From the IMG/VR virus record IMGVR_UViG_2913167280_000009, positions 1 to 28,277 of that record: a DNA stretch of 28,277 nucleotides; one strand, 5' to 3'. The position numbers were made by a program, and so were the translations under genes. The notes under the pieces are model-generated. The model was not told the DNA's origin. It did not search any database and saw nothing but the letters and a program-made list of their open reading frames with translations. Positions 1,199 through 28,277 of the stretch are shown here, piece after piece. This stretch comes from a virus. Taxonomy: Duplodnaviria; Heunggongvirae; Uroviricota; Caudoviricetes. The first letter of the stretch is position 1. Each line of letters begins with the position of its first letter.

Positions 1199-1225
1199 AG
1201 CCCGCAACATTGCGGGCTTTGTCTT
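1199..1225. terminator. GC-rich hairpin (AGCCCGC-N6-GCGGGCT) followed by a T-rich tract on the + strand, at the 3' end of the methyltransferase gene
   Basis: Inverted repeat read directly; T-rich tail only on + strand, so its role for the - strand MTase gene is uncertain. Confidence 0.35.
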
Positions 1226-2015
1226 ATGGTTCGATCGCCGTTTTGAGCCGTTGTGTTGCTACATCAAAATAATGATCACTGGTTTCTATACCAATAAATT
1301 TGCGTCCTGCTTTCAGTGCTGCAATACCCGTTGTTCCTGACCCCATAAAAGGATCAAGGACTGTTCCGCCACTATTCGCAGTCCTGACCAGTTCTGCCAT
1401 AAGTTCTTCTGGTTTTCCGGTCGGATGCAGTTTCTTTGACGGGGTAACCGGGAACGTCATGCAGCCGTCGAACGGTCCCGAAGGCGATTTACCTAAATGG
1501 CCTTTGCTACCCCAGACGATGTATTCGCACTGATGCCGGAAATACCCGGTATGGGGTGTTCGTGACCCCCTCCCTTTGTTCCACGCAACGATTCCACGCC
1601 ATGTAAAGCCGCTGGCCTGAAACGCATCGGTTAAAGCTGGCAGTTGCCGCCAGTCAGTAAACACCAGGGCATAACCGCCCGGCCTGACTGCGCGGTATGC
1701 CTGTGCCATCCATAATTGTGTCCAGTAAGCCCACGAACGGGCATCCATGTTTTCACCCGCAAATCCATCAAAGCGGTGAAGGTTCTTGTCGTTCAGATAT
1801 TTTGCATGGCTGCCCTGGTTGGTGCGTCCCGCCTTGTGTGTTGCCCCTGAACTGTAAGGCGGATCAGTGATTAAGGCATCAATGCTTTCTGGCTCAATCA
1901 GCGGCAATATTTCCAGTGCATTCCCACAGCAGAGCGTGGCATTGTCAGTCTGGTAAATCTTAGTGTATTCCGGGGTATGGGCTGTTTTGTGCTGGATTGC
2001 GATCCCCACGGTCAT
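1224..2015 (-). CDS. DNA amino-methyltransferase (N6-adenine or N4-cytosine), beta-class motif order
   Basis: 263 aa; DPPY catalytic motif near the N-terminus (ITDPPYSSG) and SAM-binding FxGxG motif near the C-terminus (LDPFMGSGTTGIAA). Confidence 0.85.
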   Translation of the reverse strand: MTVGIAIQHKTAHTPEYTKIYQTDNATLCCGNALEILPLIEPESIDALITDPPYSSGATHKAGRTNQGSHAKYLNDKNLHRFDGFAGENMDARSWAYWTQLWMAQAYRAVRPGGYALVFTDWRQLPALTDAFQASGFTWRGIVAWNKGRGSRTPHTGYFRHQCEYIVWGSKGHLGKSPSGPFDGCMTFPVTPSKKLHPTGKPEELMAELVRTANSGGTVLDPFMGSGTTGIAALKAGRKFIGIETSDHYFDVATQRLKTAIEP

Positions 2016-9353: not shown

Positions 9354-9842
9354 ATGATGATGATCTACGGCATGTTTGTTTTTGAATTGCGCACATTGCC
9401 GCATCAGCAGTTACAGCAAAACAAAAGCTGGCGACATGTGAAAAACGAGCGCGTTAACCGTTCAGCAAGCTGGCAGTATATCGGTGCAGGTGATGATCGC
9501 ATCGTTCTTTCTGGCGTGCTTTATCCTGAGATTACAGGCGGCGAAGTGTCGCTGTCGCTGCTGACCACGCAGGCGTATGCGGGACGCCCGTGGCCTCTGA
9601 TTGATGGCGTCGGGCAGATTTACGGCATGTATGTTCTGACCGAAACGAGCACGACCCGCTCTGAACTGGATCGCTACGGGAAAGCGAAAAAGATAGAGTT
9701 TTCCCTGACCCTTGAACGCTGTGATGAGGATTTGCGGGAACGCCTGCAATCCTCATCGTTCAGCGATATGCTGTCAGGCTTCAAAGATAAGGTGACATCA
9801 TCCCTTAACAGCGCGACCAGTTCGATTAAAGGGCTGTTCTGA
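9354..9842 (+). CDS. U: Tail protein U
   Basis: 162 aa starting MMMIYGMFVFELRTLPHQQLQ, typical gpU N-terminus; immediately after T. Confidence 0.85.
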   Translation: MMMIYGMFVFELRTLPHQQLQQNKSWRHVKNERVNRSASWQYIGAGDDRIVLSGVLYPEITGGEVSLSLLTTQAYAGRPWPLIDGVGQIYGMYVLTETSTTRSELDRYGKAKKIEFSLTLERCDEDLRERLQSSSFSDMLSGFKDKVTSSLNSATSSIKGLF

Positions 9843-9864
9843 GCTGCTCTGATTTAACGAAAAA

Positions 9865-9888
9865 ACCGCTAATAAATATATTGGCGGT
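9865..9888. terminator. Bidirectional rho-independent terminator between convergent U (+) and G/Tfa (-)
   Basis: ACCGCTAATA-AATA-TATTGGCGGT hairpin flanked by AAAAA upstream and TTTT downstream. Confidence 0.6.
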
Positions 9889-9912
9889 TTTGCTCCTTAA
9901 ATCACCTTACTT

Positions 9913-10488
9913 TTACACTAATTCTGGCCACTCTATATCAGGGGCATTTTCTGGCTGAACGCGGTTAAGTAATACCCGATATTTTTTCCATTTTGTCAGA
10001 CTTAATTTCTCTTCTTCTGTAGCCATATCCAAATCGACAGCATCCTGCAGAGTGGCAATAATTTCACCTGCATATGCAATCTGCTCTTTCTTCCGGGACT
10101 CTGCTGCCCTGACAAGCGCATCACGTTCTGCGCTCTCATCGTCCACCCACGCATTCCCGTTCCATTTCTGATAGTTGCCGGTCGGGGAAATTGTTGTTAC
10201 ATCAGATGGTAATGCGCCAAGTTCAGAAATATAAATGGCTGCTCCTGTTTTTGTTTCATAGACAGTCTTTCCGCGATGGTCTTCCATCAGTTCCCATTTC
10301 ATTTCATCTGCATTGAAAACGGCGGCAAAACCCGCTGGAATATCAGGAGGCGCAATATCTGTGCTGTTTGCAGGCAGACCTGTATGCGGTGGAATATATG
10401 CGTCACCTTCTCCAATAAATTCATTTGTACCATCGAGATAATTAAATACGCGAATGGTTTGTGCTTCAGCACTCATTCTGAAAGTCAT
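9913..10488 (-). CDS. Tail fibre assembly protein (Tfa; P2 gpG / lambda Tfa family)
   Basis: [34 protein letters not shown] is nearly identical to lambda Tfa; C-terminal [19 protein letters not shown] motif; ATG at 10488 with GAGG RBS (track start 10494 is an upstream GTG). Confidence 0.9.
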
Positions 10489-10512
10489 TTTCACCTCTAA
10501 TCAGAGAAAGAA

Positions 10513-11382
10513 TTATTGTTTATGTGGGGTATGGGAATGAGCACCAATGGTGATATTCCTTCCGTGGCTGTGTGCGCCAATGGCAATATTACCTACGGAT
10601 TTTACCGGATTAATCTGATGCATATGTGCCCCCGGGCGAGAACGATTATTAGTCAGCACGTCATCAACCTGATGTTCAGGATTAATGCATACCTGCCCTG
10701 ACCGTAAGCAATACGTCCGATAATCTCCGAGTCCAATATATTTAATATCCGCATAACGACAGGCAGGAGTACCCGGGCAGTATGCGCATGTATTAAATAC
10801 TTCTAACTGGCGGGAGTGTGCGTATTCCCAGTTAATTGCTTCTGTTTTTTTACTAAAGTTATCCCATGCCTGCTTCATCTGCCGGGCAACACTTTCAAAC
10901 GGCACCTGACCACATCCGGCCCCCATTGCAGGGAATACCACCGTCTTTATTTTCCTGTCTGTCGTTGCATTTTTATTGTGCTGAAAGATGGCAAGTAAAG
11001 CAGCCCACGTGGCGTTATATACAGCGTCTGTTCCGTCAATGGTCAGCGGAACGCGCATTGTTGGCGCATGTACCAGCCAGGGATGGTTGTTATCCCCCGT
11101 TTCAATAACAAATGCAGTGCCTACAGGCTGCTCACCAAGATATTCACGAAGAATATGATTCTGAACACGTGTCTGTAACTGAGTACCAAAGAATGCAGTA
11201 ATGGCAGCGTCAACGCCGCCATCCATTAGCCCGAAACTGTTTGCCGCACTGACCATGCAGTCAAATTCCGGGATTGCTTCAAATGGTTTTTCTACAACAT
11301 CCACATTATCTGCATTTGCGAATACCCGCTTAAATGCTTCAGCCATTTCAGGTACTGGTGCTGAAAGAATTAAATTAATCAT
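10513..11382 (-). CDS. Macrodomain (ADP-ribose binding/processing fold) protein with Cys-rich linker and His-rich fibre-tip-like C-terminus; function unknown
   Basis: 289 aa. N-terminal ~180 aa carry macrodomain signatures: [21 protein letters not shown] (compare VNAAN..GGGVDGAI), [14 protein letters not shown] (compare FPAISTGVYG). C-terminus has GAHxH repeats. Start ATG overlaps the H stop (ATGA). Confidence 0.7.
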
Positions 11383-13832
11383 GCAAGCCTCACAATATAG
11401 TTATATGCAATGTTTTTTACGGTGTTTTCCGCATTACCAGTAGCGTTAACCGTGATGGTATGTCCGTGCGCACCCAATGCCACAGTGTGTGCATGGGCAC
11501 CAATGCCAACCGTGTGATTATGCTGACCAATATCAACAGTATGGGCGTGCGCTCCGGCAGAGCTTGACACCTGGTTGGTTCCTGATACCTGTACGCGTTG
11601 TTTACCACCAACAGAGTCACCACCATAGCGACCACCGACAGTGTGCGTATGTGCTCCCGTATTGTTTGTCGTTTTTGTACCGTGGTTAAACGTGCTTACC
11701 GTTTTTGTCCCGTAATCAAATGAGCTGGTCGTTTTAGTACCGAGGTCAGTATTTGATGCGCTGGCACTGTGGGTGTGCGACTTGATGCCATCCTGTTCCT
11801 GAGACAATACGGCGCGACCACTGGCAGGTTTACCCTTAATTGTCCAGCCACGCATATCAGGAATAACCCCGGACGGATAGGCAACCGCAAGTTTAGGGTA
11901 AGAGCCTTTATCAAAACTTTGCCCCTGCATAATGGCATAGCCTGTAGGTACTGAATCAGAAGGCCACGGAATTGGAGACCCCACAGGGTAAAGCTCTGTC
12001 GGAGGATGTGCCGATGTGTAAAGCTGATCCCAATCCTCTTCAAAACCATAGCCGTCTCTTGATGAACGGTAGAACAGGCCTCCATTTCTGTAATGCGCCT
12101 TCATCTGCAAGGTGCGGCAACTTCCGACTCCGGTATAGAAGTTAACCAGAATATAGCTGTCGCCAGAGCGGGTGACATTGTAAGCGCCTGATTCAGCATT
12201 CCAGGGAACGCCCCCATCAGCATCGGCATACGTACCCGTTGCTCTTCTGGCAAAAGCAGCAACATGCGCAGCGGTTAAAGTAATATCTTTGGAACCATCA
12301 AACTCAACCCCAGAAACCCGTCTGGGCGTTTGCAGCTTTGTAGCTGTCGATGCGTTACCGTTCAGACTTGCGGACAGTTTGGTTCCAACAGTCAGTTCAC
12401 CAGTTGCGTTATCAACAGCAAACGCTCTCAATGCATTATGTTCGCCATAAACATCACCTTTGTTGGTAAGCAGCAGGTAAGTTTTAGCGCCGTCATTTCT
12501 CCATAACGCACCGTATTCCCCGCCTATCATTCGAATCTGATTGCCGCCGCGCGCTACAATTTCGTCTGTTGCGAACAGTTTTTTACACGACAAATTGTCG
12601 TTAACGATTAACGAATGGGACTCATAAAAACCGCGCCCACTTTTAAAATCAAGGATAACGTCAGCCGCGACACATTCTGTCGCCGGATTTATTGCTCCAA
12701 ACTTATAGGTCGTATCATTGACAACGAGATCTGCGGCCGGAACGGATATTGACAGACCATCTTCGATAAACGCAAAAACAGGGAAAGCAGCGCCATCAAC
12801 ATAGAACACAGAGCGCAAATCATCGCCCTTATTACTCATCATTATTGAGTGAATGGCTCGTTCATTGTTTTGATATTGCCAGAACATTCCATAGGCATAA
12901 CGCCCCCTGTCAGTCCAGCCGCCAGGCATAACGAATCCATTAAACTCACAGTTATTTAGTGGATCGTTCGCAGTTCGTGTTGCGGTAGTAATAATTACTC
13001 TTGATGCCAGCTCGCTTACTGAGCCAGCAGAGCGCATAACAACAACAGGGTAATATTTCCCCGGTGTTGCACCTGCCGGAGCATTAACGCGCACATAACG
13101 CATGCCATGCTTAGCAGCAAAGTCGGTTTTGCTGACCGCATTAATGTTGTTCAGGAAAGCGCCCTTATCTGGAATATCGTTACCGTTCTGGTCTTTCTGC
13201 AGACGTTTCTCAGCATTGTCATAGGCTGATTTTACTGCCTTTGGCGTTGCTGCCAGTGACTCGGAGGTGCTGTTGGTCGCACTGCTTAACTGAGTAAAGC
13301 CTTTTGCGGTCAGCGAGGCATCCGGGTGACGTCGTGACTGTTCATGCTCTTTTAGTTTGTTATCCACGTAATCCACCGTGGCCATCACCATGGTGTTATC
13401 CACGGTAAGCGCCACGGTGGCAGTGCTGGATACAGTCAGGATGGTGCGAAATGTTTGCGCACGCCCTGACCCTTCGGCAACGGCTGGCTTGTAACTTTCG
13501 GCAGTATTGCCCACCGCGATTAAATCACCGTGCTCATCAAACACACCAATTTCCCGGATCCAGAATCCGCCCGTTTCTGGAGGAATAACCAGCTCCGCAA
13601 TAATGCGGTTCTGATGTGTTTCGTCCTGGGTGACACGATTAACGGTATGTCGCCACACCTCATGCACGAGACGGGTCTGCTTACTGTCTGGCGTGGGTAA
13701 AGTACCACCGCCGTCGCCCACGGCCATATGAGTCAGGCGGACAGGCTTACCATCTGGCGCGGCTGCCTGAGCTAATTTTTTTGCACCCGTATCGGTGATA
13801 ACGGTTTTAAATTTTCGTGTTGTGGTACTCAT
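11379..13832 (-). CDS. H: Tail fibre protein H
   Basis: 817 aa; N-terminal ~220 aa match P2 H ([67 protein letters not shown]); C-terminal tip with HxH repeats. Confidence 0.9.
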
Positions 13833-26103: not shown

Positions 26104-26643
26104 TTAGGTGTTCTTTTTACCTTCTGTCAGTGGGCATAACCATCCACTATTTACATCACTTAGCTGATGCGTTCTTTCCTCGTGCTTCTCCTGCCACAAT
26201 GCTTTTCCGCCAGCCTTTATGATGGCTCTTTCAACATCCCGCTCGTATCGCAAGGGCTGAAATACGTTATTAATGAAATATTCGCTTATGTCCGAAAGCA
26301 ATACTGCAAAATTATTGGTTTGTTGCGCCGTTCGGCTATGCAGCAAAGCGGCATACTTTAATGCGTCCTGTGCTTTCTGGAATTTAAGTGCATGGTCAGT
26401 TGCGATTTTTTCCAGTTCAGCGATGCGCTTTTTTGCTGTTTCCAGTTCATCCAGCAGTGCCAGCATGTCTTCCGGTCCAGCCAGAAGTCTGAAGGTGTTG
26501 ATCGCGTCAATATCCACACCGCAATCTTTAAGTTCCTGTTCGCTTAACAAATCATCATCAACTGGCAATATTAACAGGCGTTCCATTGCCGGAATTGCCC
26601 GTTCTGCTGCCATTTGTAGTGCCTGATAGTCAATCTTGCTCAC
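26104..26643 (-). CDS. Hypothetical protein (acidic, helical); co-transcribed with upstream ORF
   Basis: 179 aa; start overlaps the stop of the preceding ORF (ATGA coupling); no family recognised with confidence. Confidence 0.5.
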   Translation of the reverse strand: MSKIDYQALQMAAERAIPAMERLLILPVDDDLLSEQELKDCGVDIDAINTFRLLAGPEDMLALLDELETAKKRIAELEKIATDHALKFQKAQDALKYAALLHSRTAQQTNNFAVLLSDISEYFINNVFQPLRYERDVERAIIKAGGKALWQEKHEERTHQLSDVNSGWLCPLTEGKKNT

Positions 26644-27542: not shown

Positions 27543-28277
27543 TTACTCCTTATCCATAGCGTACAGACCGTTAACCAGAGCAAACTGTGGCACCCCGTCT
27601 GTGATGAAATTCGCATTGACTCCATAGACTTCACGGACTGCGGGTGCCACAATCTCCGCTCCTCCACCGACAACCAGCACCCGCCCGTAACCCGAAAAGC
27701 CCGCGAGTGCGCGGATCACGCGTTGTTTCAGTGTCTCCTCCTTTTCACGAATAACCGCCATCAGGCTGTTGTAATGCGCGTCATTGTGAATGTGCTGGCG
27801 TAGCCAGGCTTCATCGTGACGGTGCTCAATAATGGTATTGGCGATGTGGTGACTGGTACGCATACCGTTAGTGGCCATCACCGACAGCACGGCATCAGCC
27901 ATCAGGGAAACGCCTACGTGTGGATCGCAAAACACCTGGCTGATGCCTGCCAGTTGCCCCTGAACCTTTGCCACATCCAGCGTGGTTCCGCCCAAATCCA
28001 CAATCAGCAGGGATTCAAACGGACTCATGTCAGCCAGTGCCTTAAAGCCAGCCGGAATGGATTCAGGCATAACCCGCACGTTACGGATAGTGAATGCCTC
28101 ACCGTTCTGGCACTCCACCGGGCGCATGACGTTCGCTTTTTTGCGGTTGATGTTGGCCATGTCCGGCTGTGCGTTTGTGTCGAAATATTCGCTCAGTGGC
28201 AGGGTGACAACCACATCCACTTCCTGTGGTGTGATGCCTGATTTGACCAGTGCGTGGTGAATGGCAATGACATTCAC
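27543..28277 (-). CDS. parM: ParM/StbA actin-like partition ATPase, N-terminally truncated by the window edge
   Basis: Colinear matches to R1 ParM: IAIHHAL, ITPQEVD, RKKAN, VMPESIPAGF, SLLIVDLGGTTLDVA, GVSL, FSGYGRVLVVGGGAE, LVNGLY. Confidence 0.85.
   Translation of the reverse strand: MNVIAIHHALVKSGITPQEVDVVVTLPLSEYFDTNAQPDMANINRKKANVMRPVECQNGEAFTIRNVRVMPESIPAGFKALADMSPFESLLIVDLGGTTLDVAKVQGQLAGISQVFCDPHVGVSLMADAVLSVMATNGMRTSHHIANTIIEHRHDEAWLRQHIHNDAHYNSLMAVIREKEETLKQRVIRALAGFSGYGRVLVVGGGAEIVAPAVREVYGVNANFITDGVPQFALVNGLYAMDKE

Follow-up and report, generated by a model that had tools for sequence, protein, structure and literature searches.

A Macro2-type macrodomain gene between the tail fibre and Tfa genes in the host-range cassette of a P2-like prophage

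A P2-like prophage carries, between its tail fibre gene and the gene for its tail fibre assembly (Tfa) chaperone, an intact gene for a Macro2-type macrodomain protein that is coupled to the fibre gene, strictly linked to the fibre-Tfa cassette and unnecessary for fibre assembly. The gene is a 289-residue open reading frame (ORF) at positions 10513..11382, minus strand, of the stretch of 28,277 nucleotides analysed here (hereafter the window; IMG/VR record IMGVR_UViG_2913167280_000009, positions 1 to 28,277; Caudoviricetes), which also contains P2-family capsid, terminase, sheath, gpD, gpJ, gpI and gpU genes. We propose that the encoded protein is a cytoplasmic enzyme, expressed late, that acts on a derivative of ADP-ribose, and that the gene is optional cargo of the host-range cassette with a role probably in counter-defence. 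We put the probability of this reading at about 0.5.

Results

A macrodomain of the Macro2 type

Is the ORF truly a macrodomain gene? The Pfam family Macro (PF01661) matches residues 44-169 at 69.9 bits, against a cut-off of 22 (E=2.3e-19), and the whole profile (1-118) is covered, a match far beyond chance. An AlphaFold2 (AF2) model based on an alignment of 82 sequences has a predicted local distance difference test score (pLDDT) of at least 95 across residues 1-200 and shows the three-layer alpha/beta/alpha macro fold, which begins at residue 2; it replaces an earlier run on a shallow alignment of 20 sequences that had given poor loops and a pLDDT of 61.7. The initial annotation had proposed a macrodomain gene between the fibre gene H and the Tfa chaperone gene and had called for hidden Markov model (HMM) and structure comparisons of this kind; its assignment is correct.

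Residues 1-195 (10798..11382, minus strand) form the macrodomain, and the motifs of the ADP-ribose pocket are all present: the Asp before strand beta3 (D41), the N-x6-GG[VLI]D motif (N48-x6-G55-G56-V57-D58) and the Gly-rich loop 2 (G154-A-G-C-G158), together with H105-A-P-T-M-R-V-P112. Within the close family (A1) no variation occurs at D41, N48, G55-G56-V57-D58 and G154-A-G-C-G158; in A2 these positions are mostly at least 90% conserved. Across 82 sequences, down to 31% identity, N48, D54, G56, D58, G88, P107, T108, M109 and G158 are each at least 90% conserved. Judging from the motif, we take the loop 2 position of the invariant G158 to be the one at which an aromatic residue is expected to pack on the distal ribose in MacroD-type enzymes; a glycine there would free room at the 1'' position.

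To which class of macrodomain does the protein belong? A profile of the family finds the yeast protein YMR087W (Ymx7, PDB 1NJR) as its best match (E=1.8e-17), with the motifs VSxxNSxG..GGxD, PT..P and PG..TG.G.VP in common, and YMR087W is the closest characterised relative of the window macrodomain by sequence and by structure. The Macro_2 family (PF14519) scores 22.2 bits against the window protein, just below its cut-off of 27, and many close relatives have a precomputed PF14519 match. A DarG-like identity was considered and rejected: the protein reaches 12.4 bits with the NCBIfam model antitoxin_DarG, whose cut-off is 250, and 14.7 bits over 39 residues with the PADLOC DarG model, and the structure is not nearer DarG than other macro classes. 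The domain is thus Macro2-type, resembling the YMR087W ADP-ribose-1''-monophosphatase, and is neither DarG/TARG1-like nor MacroD-like. YMR087W is the only "Macro-2 type" member to have been studied; it converts Appr-1''-p (the 1''-phosphate of ADP-ribose) to ADP-ribose and was reported to be devoid of activity that removes mono-ADP-ribose from its targets (de-MARylation; PMC6397177).

The whole ORF is under purifying selection. All 81 copies, comprising 80 IMG/VR relatives and that of the window, are intact, and the pooled ratio of nonsynonymous to synonymous substitution rates (dN/dS), computed over 56 distinct alleles, comes to 0.15 in the macrodomain, 0.24 in the cysteine module that follows it and 0.36 in the C-terminal tail, the least constrained region of the ORF.

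A cysteine module and a histidine-rich tail

The macrodomain is followed by two segments that did not figure in the initial annotation. Residues 196-240 (10663..10797, minus strand) form a Cys-rich module with the pattern AYCP-x4-C-x16-C-x6-C and then H-Q-x-D-D. In the close family (A1), C202, C225 and C232 never vary, C208 is at least 90% conserved, and AF2 places a beta-hairpin at residues 211-225 with a pLDDT of 62-82. The pattern looks like that of a zinc-knuckle or zinc-ribbon and suggests that the module binds metal. It is confined to the enterobacterial subfamily. Residues 241-289, which with the stop codon span 10513..10662 (minus strand), form a variable His-rich tail with three GAHxH motifs (GAHMH, GAHSH and GAHSH). 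The first GxHxH is found family-wide (G251 is invariant and H253 at least 90% conserved), and the number and sequence of the later repeats vary. The AF2 monomer model gives the tail a pLDDT below 50.

Where did the C-terminal part come from? The tail shows similarity to the HxH region of the fibre by BLASTP (E=4e-5) and a weak match to phrog_295, "tail fiber" (E=0.003). We considered that the tail might be a recent copy of fibre DNA; in a blastn comparison with the fibre gene and 80 upstream fibre regions, however, the last 168 nt match only the macro genes themselves. We also considered that residues 197-289 might be a portable fibre-docking domain; a profile of these residues compared with 5.8 billion proteins recovers only fragments of the same family. 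Since the profile is restricted to its own family and similarity to fibre DNA is lacking, the C-terminal part is a lineage-specific addition, neither a recombination scar nor a portable module. Finally, a fibre-macro fusion produced by frameshifting was rejected: there is no slippery sequence at the junction ...AGG CTT GCA TGA, and no fused proteins occur among the homologues.

Coupling to the fibre gene

The tail fibre gene of the window (11379..13832, minus strand; 817 aa) is of the P2 H / lambda Stf type and matches the Pfam families Phage_tail_fib (5e-55), Gp34_trimer, Phage_fiber_2, Collar and gp37_C. Its product carries GxHxH repeats in the distal part and ends in ...NYIVRLA, followed by a TGA stop. 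This stop (11381-11379) shares bases with the ATG of the macro gene (11382-11380), forming an ATGA overlap at 11379..11382 (minus strand) that constitutes a translational-coupling junction. At its other end, the macro gene terminates in TAA (10515-10513) and is separated from the Tfa gene by a 24-nt spacer (10489..10512, minus strand), in which 15 nt precede the Tfa ribosome-binding site GAGGTG (10497-10492); the Tfa ATG begins at 10488. The extent, length and ATGA overlap originally given for the ORF therefore stand, on the minus strand, while the distance of 18 nt to the Tfa ribosome-binding site needs to be corrected to 15 nt. The Tfa gene itself (9913..10488, minus strand; 191 aa) is of the Tfa / P2 G type (Caudo_TAP, E=8e-39; phrog_105), and its product is 66% identical to lambda Tfa.

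In a scan of positions 9700-12200, the counts of promoter- and terminator-like sites are no higher than the shuffle mean, and none above chance separates the fibre gene, the macro gene and the Tfa gene. Together with the ATGA overlap, this makes late co-expression with the tail genes the natural reading, as the initial annotation had also held. The GC content is 0.42-0.50 in the distal half of the fibre gene, the macro gene and the Tfa gene, compared with 0.53-0.60 in the phage backbone. We note that the window fibre is a mosaic of a P2-like N-terminus, a T4 gp34-type trimerisation domain, Collar and gp37_C domains and a lambda Stf-type tip; it matches P2-like phages (P88 and relatives) at the N-terminus with ~94% identity and lambdoid phages over the middle with ~85-88% identity.

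Cassettes that lack the gene

Is the macro gene needed by the fibre and its chaperone? In Salmonella phage STYP1, a sequenced Peduovirus phage record, and in Peduovirus P24A7b, the Tfa proteins are 94% and 92% identical, respectively, to that of the window, and their genes follow the fibre gene directly. These two phages thus show the arrangement described as usual at the outset, in which gene G comes immediately after H. In STYP1, the one for which the fibre tip was compared, the last 207 fibre residues are 89% identical to those of the window, and DNA alignment shows that window positions 11371-10490 (882 nt, comprising the macro gene and the spacer) are precisely absent; the junction reads GCATAATGACTTTC in STYP1 versus GCATGATTAAT... 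in the window. A near-identical tip and Tfa without the macro gene indicate that the gene is unnecessary for fibre assembly and is optional cargo of the cassette, which agrees with its initial description as an inserted ORF. Judged as a moron, the gene has the presence/absence polymorphism in homologous cassettes and shows no promoter or terminator of its own above chance. We also considered that the macro protein might itself be a tail fibre assembly chaperone (Caudo_TAP / Phage_tail_APC); it has no match to these HMMs, and the fibre/Tfa pair of STYP1 does without it.

Distribution of the cassette

The initial annotation implied that a macrodomain at this position was new. This is not the case: the placement is widespread and annotated in databases. 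The protein matches PHROG 2613 ("unknown function") at E=1e-135, and 2259 proteins match at E<=1e-5, named "macro domain-containing protein" or "phage tail protein" and coming mostly from Salmonella, E. coli, E. albertii and E. fergusonii. The order fibre-(4-nt overlap)-macro-Tfa is annotated in Escherichia phage Chuche (90% identity), in the lambdoid prophage Gifsy-1 and in the Salmonella phages SEN4/SEN5 (Peduoviridae). The Gifsy-1 copy is STM2588.1n, whose record states that it "contains pfam01661, Macro domain", and those of SEN4/SEN5 are labelled "macro domain-containing protein". The gene is carried by 250 of 5426 complete E. coli genomes, including in lambdoid prophages beside cdtABC. 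Literature searches (STM2588, SEN4/5, macro and tail fibre, macro and anti-defence, YMR087W) returned no functional study of the gene and none of this placement. New in the present work are the conserved Cys4 module, the fibre-like GxHxH tail, the purifying selection, the precise absence in STYP1 and the contexts of distant relatives.

Within IMG/VR the linkage is strict. At 80 of 80 loci there is a 4-nt overlap between the macro start and the stop of an upstream ORF whose product ends in ...NIA[FY]NYIVRLA. Where complete, these upstream ORFs range from ~140 to 1177 aa, which points to differing fibre N-termini. A Tfa gene (~190 aa where complete) begins between -28 and +30 nt after the macro gene at 79 of the 80 loci; at the remaining one (L036), a simple ORF picker recovered no Tfa after it.

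Several individual copies have neighbours of interest. In the E. coli plasmid pEC17CM13_2 (NZ_CP190335.1; 97 kb, with phage tail, holin and lysis genes, and probably a P1-like phage-plasmid), the macro gene carries a frameshift and the fibre gene is in fragments (L004, 2850-6249); the Tfa gene is intact, and the genes beside it, which encode a lipopolysaccharide N-acetylglucosaminyltransferase and an acetyltransferase of the DapH/GlmU-like kind, may be cargo for surface modification. In the E. coli 2009C-3133 chromosome (L005, 1653-9116), the immediate neighbour of a lambdoid stf-macro-tfa cassette is cdtABC, the operon for cytolethal distending toxin, and in Gifsy-1 the cassette lies beside pagK-like and gogB genes. 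These neighbours indicate that the cassette borders a zone of virulence cargo.

The wider Macro2-type family

Taken by itself, the macrodomain (residues 1-195) is one of a family whose standalone members, each of ~190 aa, number more than 6000 and occur in bacteria, phages and giant viruses. What surrounds these relatives? We surveyed distant IMG/VR phage loci (L098-L170) within 3.5 kb of the macro homologue. Among 139 ORFs in 30 non-jumbo phage contigs, Pfam identified Tpt1/KptA RNA 2'-phosphotransferase (3), Thg1 tRNA-His guanylyltransferase (3), 2H RNA-ligase-like (2), Acb1 (2) and Metallophos (2) proteins. In the known route, Tpt1 generates ADP-ribose-1'',2''-cyclic phosphate (Appr>p), a 2H enzyme turns this into Appr-1''-p, and the macrodomain acts next. 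The neighbours of the relatives fit this route as well as the proposal of Iyer et al. that jumbo-phage macrodomains degrade ADP-ribose-derived signals or serve NAD-dependent RNA repair (PMC7824862). They suggest a compact phage module for RNA repair or ADP-ribose processing beside Macro2-type macrodomains.

Other relatives lie near fibre genes. In a Devosia prophage the macro homologue begins 8 nt after a gene for a Collar-domain protein, and in three environmental phage contigs, L105 (759-1821), L110 (4464-5588) and L114 (4452-5555), the macrodomain begins 6-10 nt after a tail-fibre-assembly gene (Phage_tail_APC, phrog_4912). The gene order in these contigs is the reverse of that in the enterobacterial cassette, and the L114 pair stands just before an integrase. 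In L097, L098 and cyanophage Mae-JY35 the homologue lies inside fibre or structural regions. A general link of the wider family to Collar fibres or Tfa was nevertheless rejected. Such neighbours are recurrent only: phmmer and HMM searches of 75 distant IMG/VR loci found Collar-like matches at 1e-16 or better in 2 (plus 2 near-duplicates at ~1e-4) and Tfa-like genes in 5, and many relatives sit in jumbo phages among non-structural genes. For example, the phiRSL1 and Noxifer homologues lie among small non-structural genes, which suggests that the label "tail protein" was carried over to them from other records. Where members of the wider family are fused to another domain, this is a WD40, RRM, DSP/rhodanese or Hpt domain and in no case a fibre domain.

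Other genes of the window

Beyond the tail genes, the window contains, at 27543-28277 (minus strand, running off the window end), a gene for a ParM/StbA-type actin-like segregation protein (ParM_N, 6e-67; StbA_N, 5e-40) and, at the same end of the prophage, a gene for an Ead/Ea22-like protein (26104-26643, minus strand). A database protein of 463 aa (P0024, from an 8.4-kb Logan contig) joins ParM domains to this macrodomain and is probably an assembly chimera. At the opposite end, the region to ~2500 holds cargo beyond gpD and Ogr, including an N6/N4 DNA methyltransferase gene (1224-2015, minus strand; 8e-33). In genomes with an identical macro protein (L006, L008 and L009; 18860-20160), a Com-like zinc ribbon and a Hok/Gef-type toxin ORF precede the methyltransferase, an arrangement resembling Mu com-mom with a different methylase.

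Discussion

What might a macrodomain do in a fibre cassette? We propose that the gene is an optional third member of a horizontally exchanged host-range cassette that otherwise consists of fibre tip and Tfa. Transcription with the late tail operon and translation coupled to the fibre would yield the protein late in infection and in fibre-like amounts. In the cytoplasm, the macrodomain pocket would bind a 1''-substituted ADP-ribose derivative and hydrolyse or sequester it; candidate ligands are Appr-1''-p, a related ADP-ribose-derived metabolite or immune signal, and possibly an ADP-ribosyl adduct. A product of a host defence that consumes NAD+ or ADP-ribosylates its targets may thereby be removed while virions are assembled. 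The C-terminal Cys4/His part probably binds metal, and may oligomerise the protein or tether it to the fibre-Tfa complex. The initial annotation had named reversal of ADP-ribosylation as a role; given that YMR087W is reported not to de-MARylate, we favour this less than the processing of a soluble 1''-substituted ADP-ribose. Phage macrodomains with a proven counter-defence role have precedents in T4 AdfM (bioRxiv 10.1101/2025.11.20.689424), in a Vibrio cholerae phage protein that mimics DarG and in the DarG2-like protein of a chimallivirus.

Several points weigh against this proposal. Our literature searches yielded no biochemical or genetic work on any member of the subfamily, and the single Macro2 enzyme that has been studied, in being reported inactive in de-MARylation, narrows the range of plausible substrates (PMC6397177). 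The window prophage contains no Tpt1/KptA or 2H cyclic phosphodiesterase partner. Late expression is unusual for counter-defence genes. Finally, the conserved GxHxH tail resembles fibre repeats and, taken with the fibre- or Tfa-adjacent relatives in unrelated phages (Devosia, L105/L110/L114, L097 and Mae-JY35), hints that the protein is tied to the fibre, physically or functionally, in a way that a purely soluble enzyme would leave unexplained.

Such a tie is the substance of an alternative that we consider unlikely, in which the protein is a virion or fibre accessory and the label "tail protein" is apt. Its Cys4/GxHxH C-terminus would trimerise around metal in the manner of a fibre shaft, possibly with the help of Tfa, or would dock on the fibre tip, and the macrodomain, displayed on the particle, would bind or process a host ligand or be carried into the next infection. 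The three GxHxH motifs, with their weak similarity to the fibre HxH region and their recurrence in very divergent tails, are consistent with this, as are the fibre-macro-Tfa order with fibre coupling at all 80 loci and in the window, the independent lineages whose relatives come right after a Collar-domain fibre or Tfa-like gene, and the place of the Mae-JY35 homologue within a structural module. The protein, however, lacks the N-terminal virion-attachment domain and long trimeric shaft of a fibre: the macro fold starts at residue 2, and the tail comprises only ~50 residues, which are the least constrained of the ORF and have no DNA similarity to fibre repeats. STYP1 has the matching tip and Tfa yet does without the gene, fibre-macro fusions are not seen among the homologues, and the "tail protein" labels in jumbo phages belong to proteins encoded among non-structural genes. 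To our knowledge, moreover, all known macrodomain ligands are intracellular ADP-ribose derivatives. A reading in which the gene product is a factor for fibre assembly or maturation, or else the gene is a decaying remnant or a passenger devoid of function, is largely refuted: the position between fibre and chaperone genes and the frameshifted copy on the 97-kb E. coli plasmid are in its favour, but STYP1 and P24A7b place near-identical Tfa genes (94% and 92% identity of the products) directly after the fibre gene, and the 81 of 81 intact copies and dN/dS values of 0.15-0.36 are not those of a remnant.

There are two further explanations. A 2026 preprint reports that alleles of a side-tail-fibre and its chaperone set sensitivity to type II Thoeris, whose His-ADP-ribose signal is read by a macrodomain. 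This prompts the idea of an antidote linked to its trigger: host sensors of the TIR/Thoeris type, or others that use NAD+, would detect the folded complex of fibre tip and Tfa, and the macro protein, whose synthesis would keep pace with that of the fibre and whose tail might tether it at the source of the signal, would destroy or soak up the ADP-ribose-based signal and travel with the trigger whenever host-range modules are swapped. The strict linkage and translational coupling to the fibre gene accord with this, the lower GC content of the whole cassette relative to the backbone is consistent with movement as a unit, and the invariant G158 of loop 2 would leave room at 1'' if our comparison with MacroD is right. 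The link is entirely circumstantial, however, and the preprint concerns unrelated N4-like Pseudomonas phages with a different kind of fibre. In addition, the same class of tip and Tfa usually occurs without the macro gene: lambda and STYP1 are examples, and of the 612 phage records that have a Tfa homologue most lack it (a macro homologue is found in 49 records). We regard the idea as rather improbable; were it correct, host-range cassettes would carry their own immune evasion between P2-like, lambdoid and P1-like phages, a prospect we hold to be equally slim. Very doubtful, in our estimate, is a gene of lysogenic conversion or host benefit that is expressed from the prophage and shields the lysogen, for instance by serving as an orphan antitoxin to toxins that ADP-ribosylate or as part of superinfection immunity. 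The family is indeed widespread in Salmonella and E. coli prophages, including beside cdtABC and gogB/pagK, and its presence varies between otherwise similar cassettes. Yet the gene has no upstream promoter-like site above chance, its start codon is embedded in the fibre stop, the DarG models fail, and records that were deposited as genomes of phages, such as Chuche and SEN4/5, contain it too.

How does the window protein compare with known systems? STM2588.1n of Gifsy-1, gp19 of SEN4/SEN5 and CDS0053 of Chuche belong to the same family (67-90% identity) and share the three-part architecture and the fibre-ATGA-macro-Tfa order, in both lambdoid and P2-like phages; they differ only in the length and sequence of the His-rich tail and in the spacing to Tfa (-28 to +30 nt). 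YMR087W, ~21% identical to the phage protein, is a cellular enzyme tied to by-products of tRNA splicing and has no Cys4/His tail, whereas the phage protein has no Tpt1/2H partner nearby and an activity that is predicted only. Of the same clade are Noxifer gp265, PhiPA3 gp271, phiRSL1 ORF054, and the phiM7 and Mimivirus LCMiAC01 proteins (32-41% identity; Foldseek E 1e-14 to 1e-19). These homologues from jumbo phages, rhizobiophages and giant viruses are ~190 aa long, lack the Cys4/His extension and are mostly encoded among early or metabolic genes, not in a fibre operon. T4 AdfM/Tk.4, the Vibrio cholerae phage DarG mimic and the chimallivirus DarG2-like protein are likewise phage accessory macrodomains, directed against DarTG, but they belong to a different macro clade (ALC1/TARG1/DarG-like) and lie outside fibre cassettes. 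No T4-like phages are among the tblastn matches of the window protein, and a Tk.4 homologue is a distant Foldseek match (E=8e-5, versus 1e-19 for Macro2-type viral proteins). Any likeness in mode of action between the window protein and the AdfM group is thus one of outline at most, and the window protein stands outside that family. Lambda Tfa, P2 G and Mu U share with it the slot right after the fibre gene and co-inheritance with the fibre tip; they are unrelated to it in sequence and fold, and a genuine Tfa gene follows the macro gene.

Macrodomains are just beginning to be recognised as counter-defence enzymes of phages, and those characterised are DarG-like, whereas the family described here belongs to the almost unstudied Macro2 clade and has a unique extension that is predicted to be of a metal-binding type. 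Prophages of Salmonella and E. coli carry it very commonly, Gifsy-1 of the laboratory strain LT2 among them, and it always lies inside a module for host-range swaps. Natural pairs with and without the gene exist, such as the window prophage or Chuche versus STYP1. Identification of the substrate would assign a function to thousands of proteins now annotated as "phage tail protein" or "macro domain", and would test whether host-range modules carry immune-evasion cargo or whether the macrodomain is a structural or fibre-associated component.

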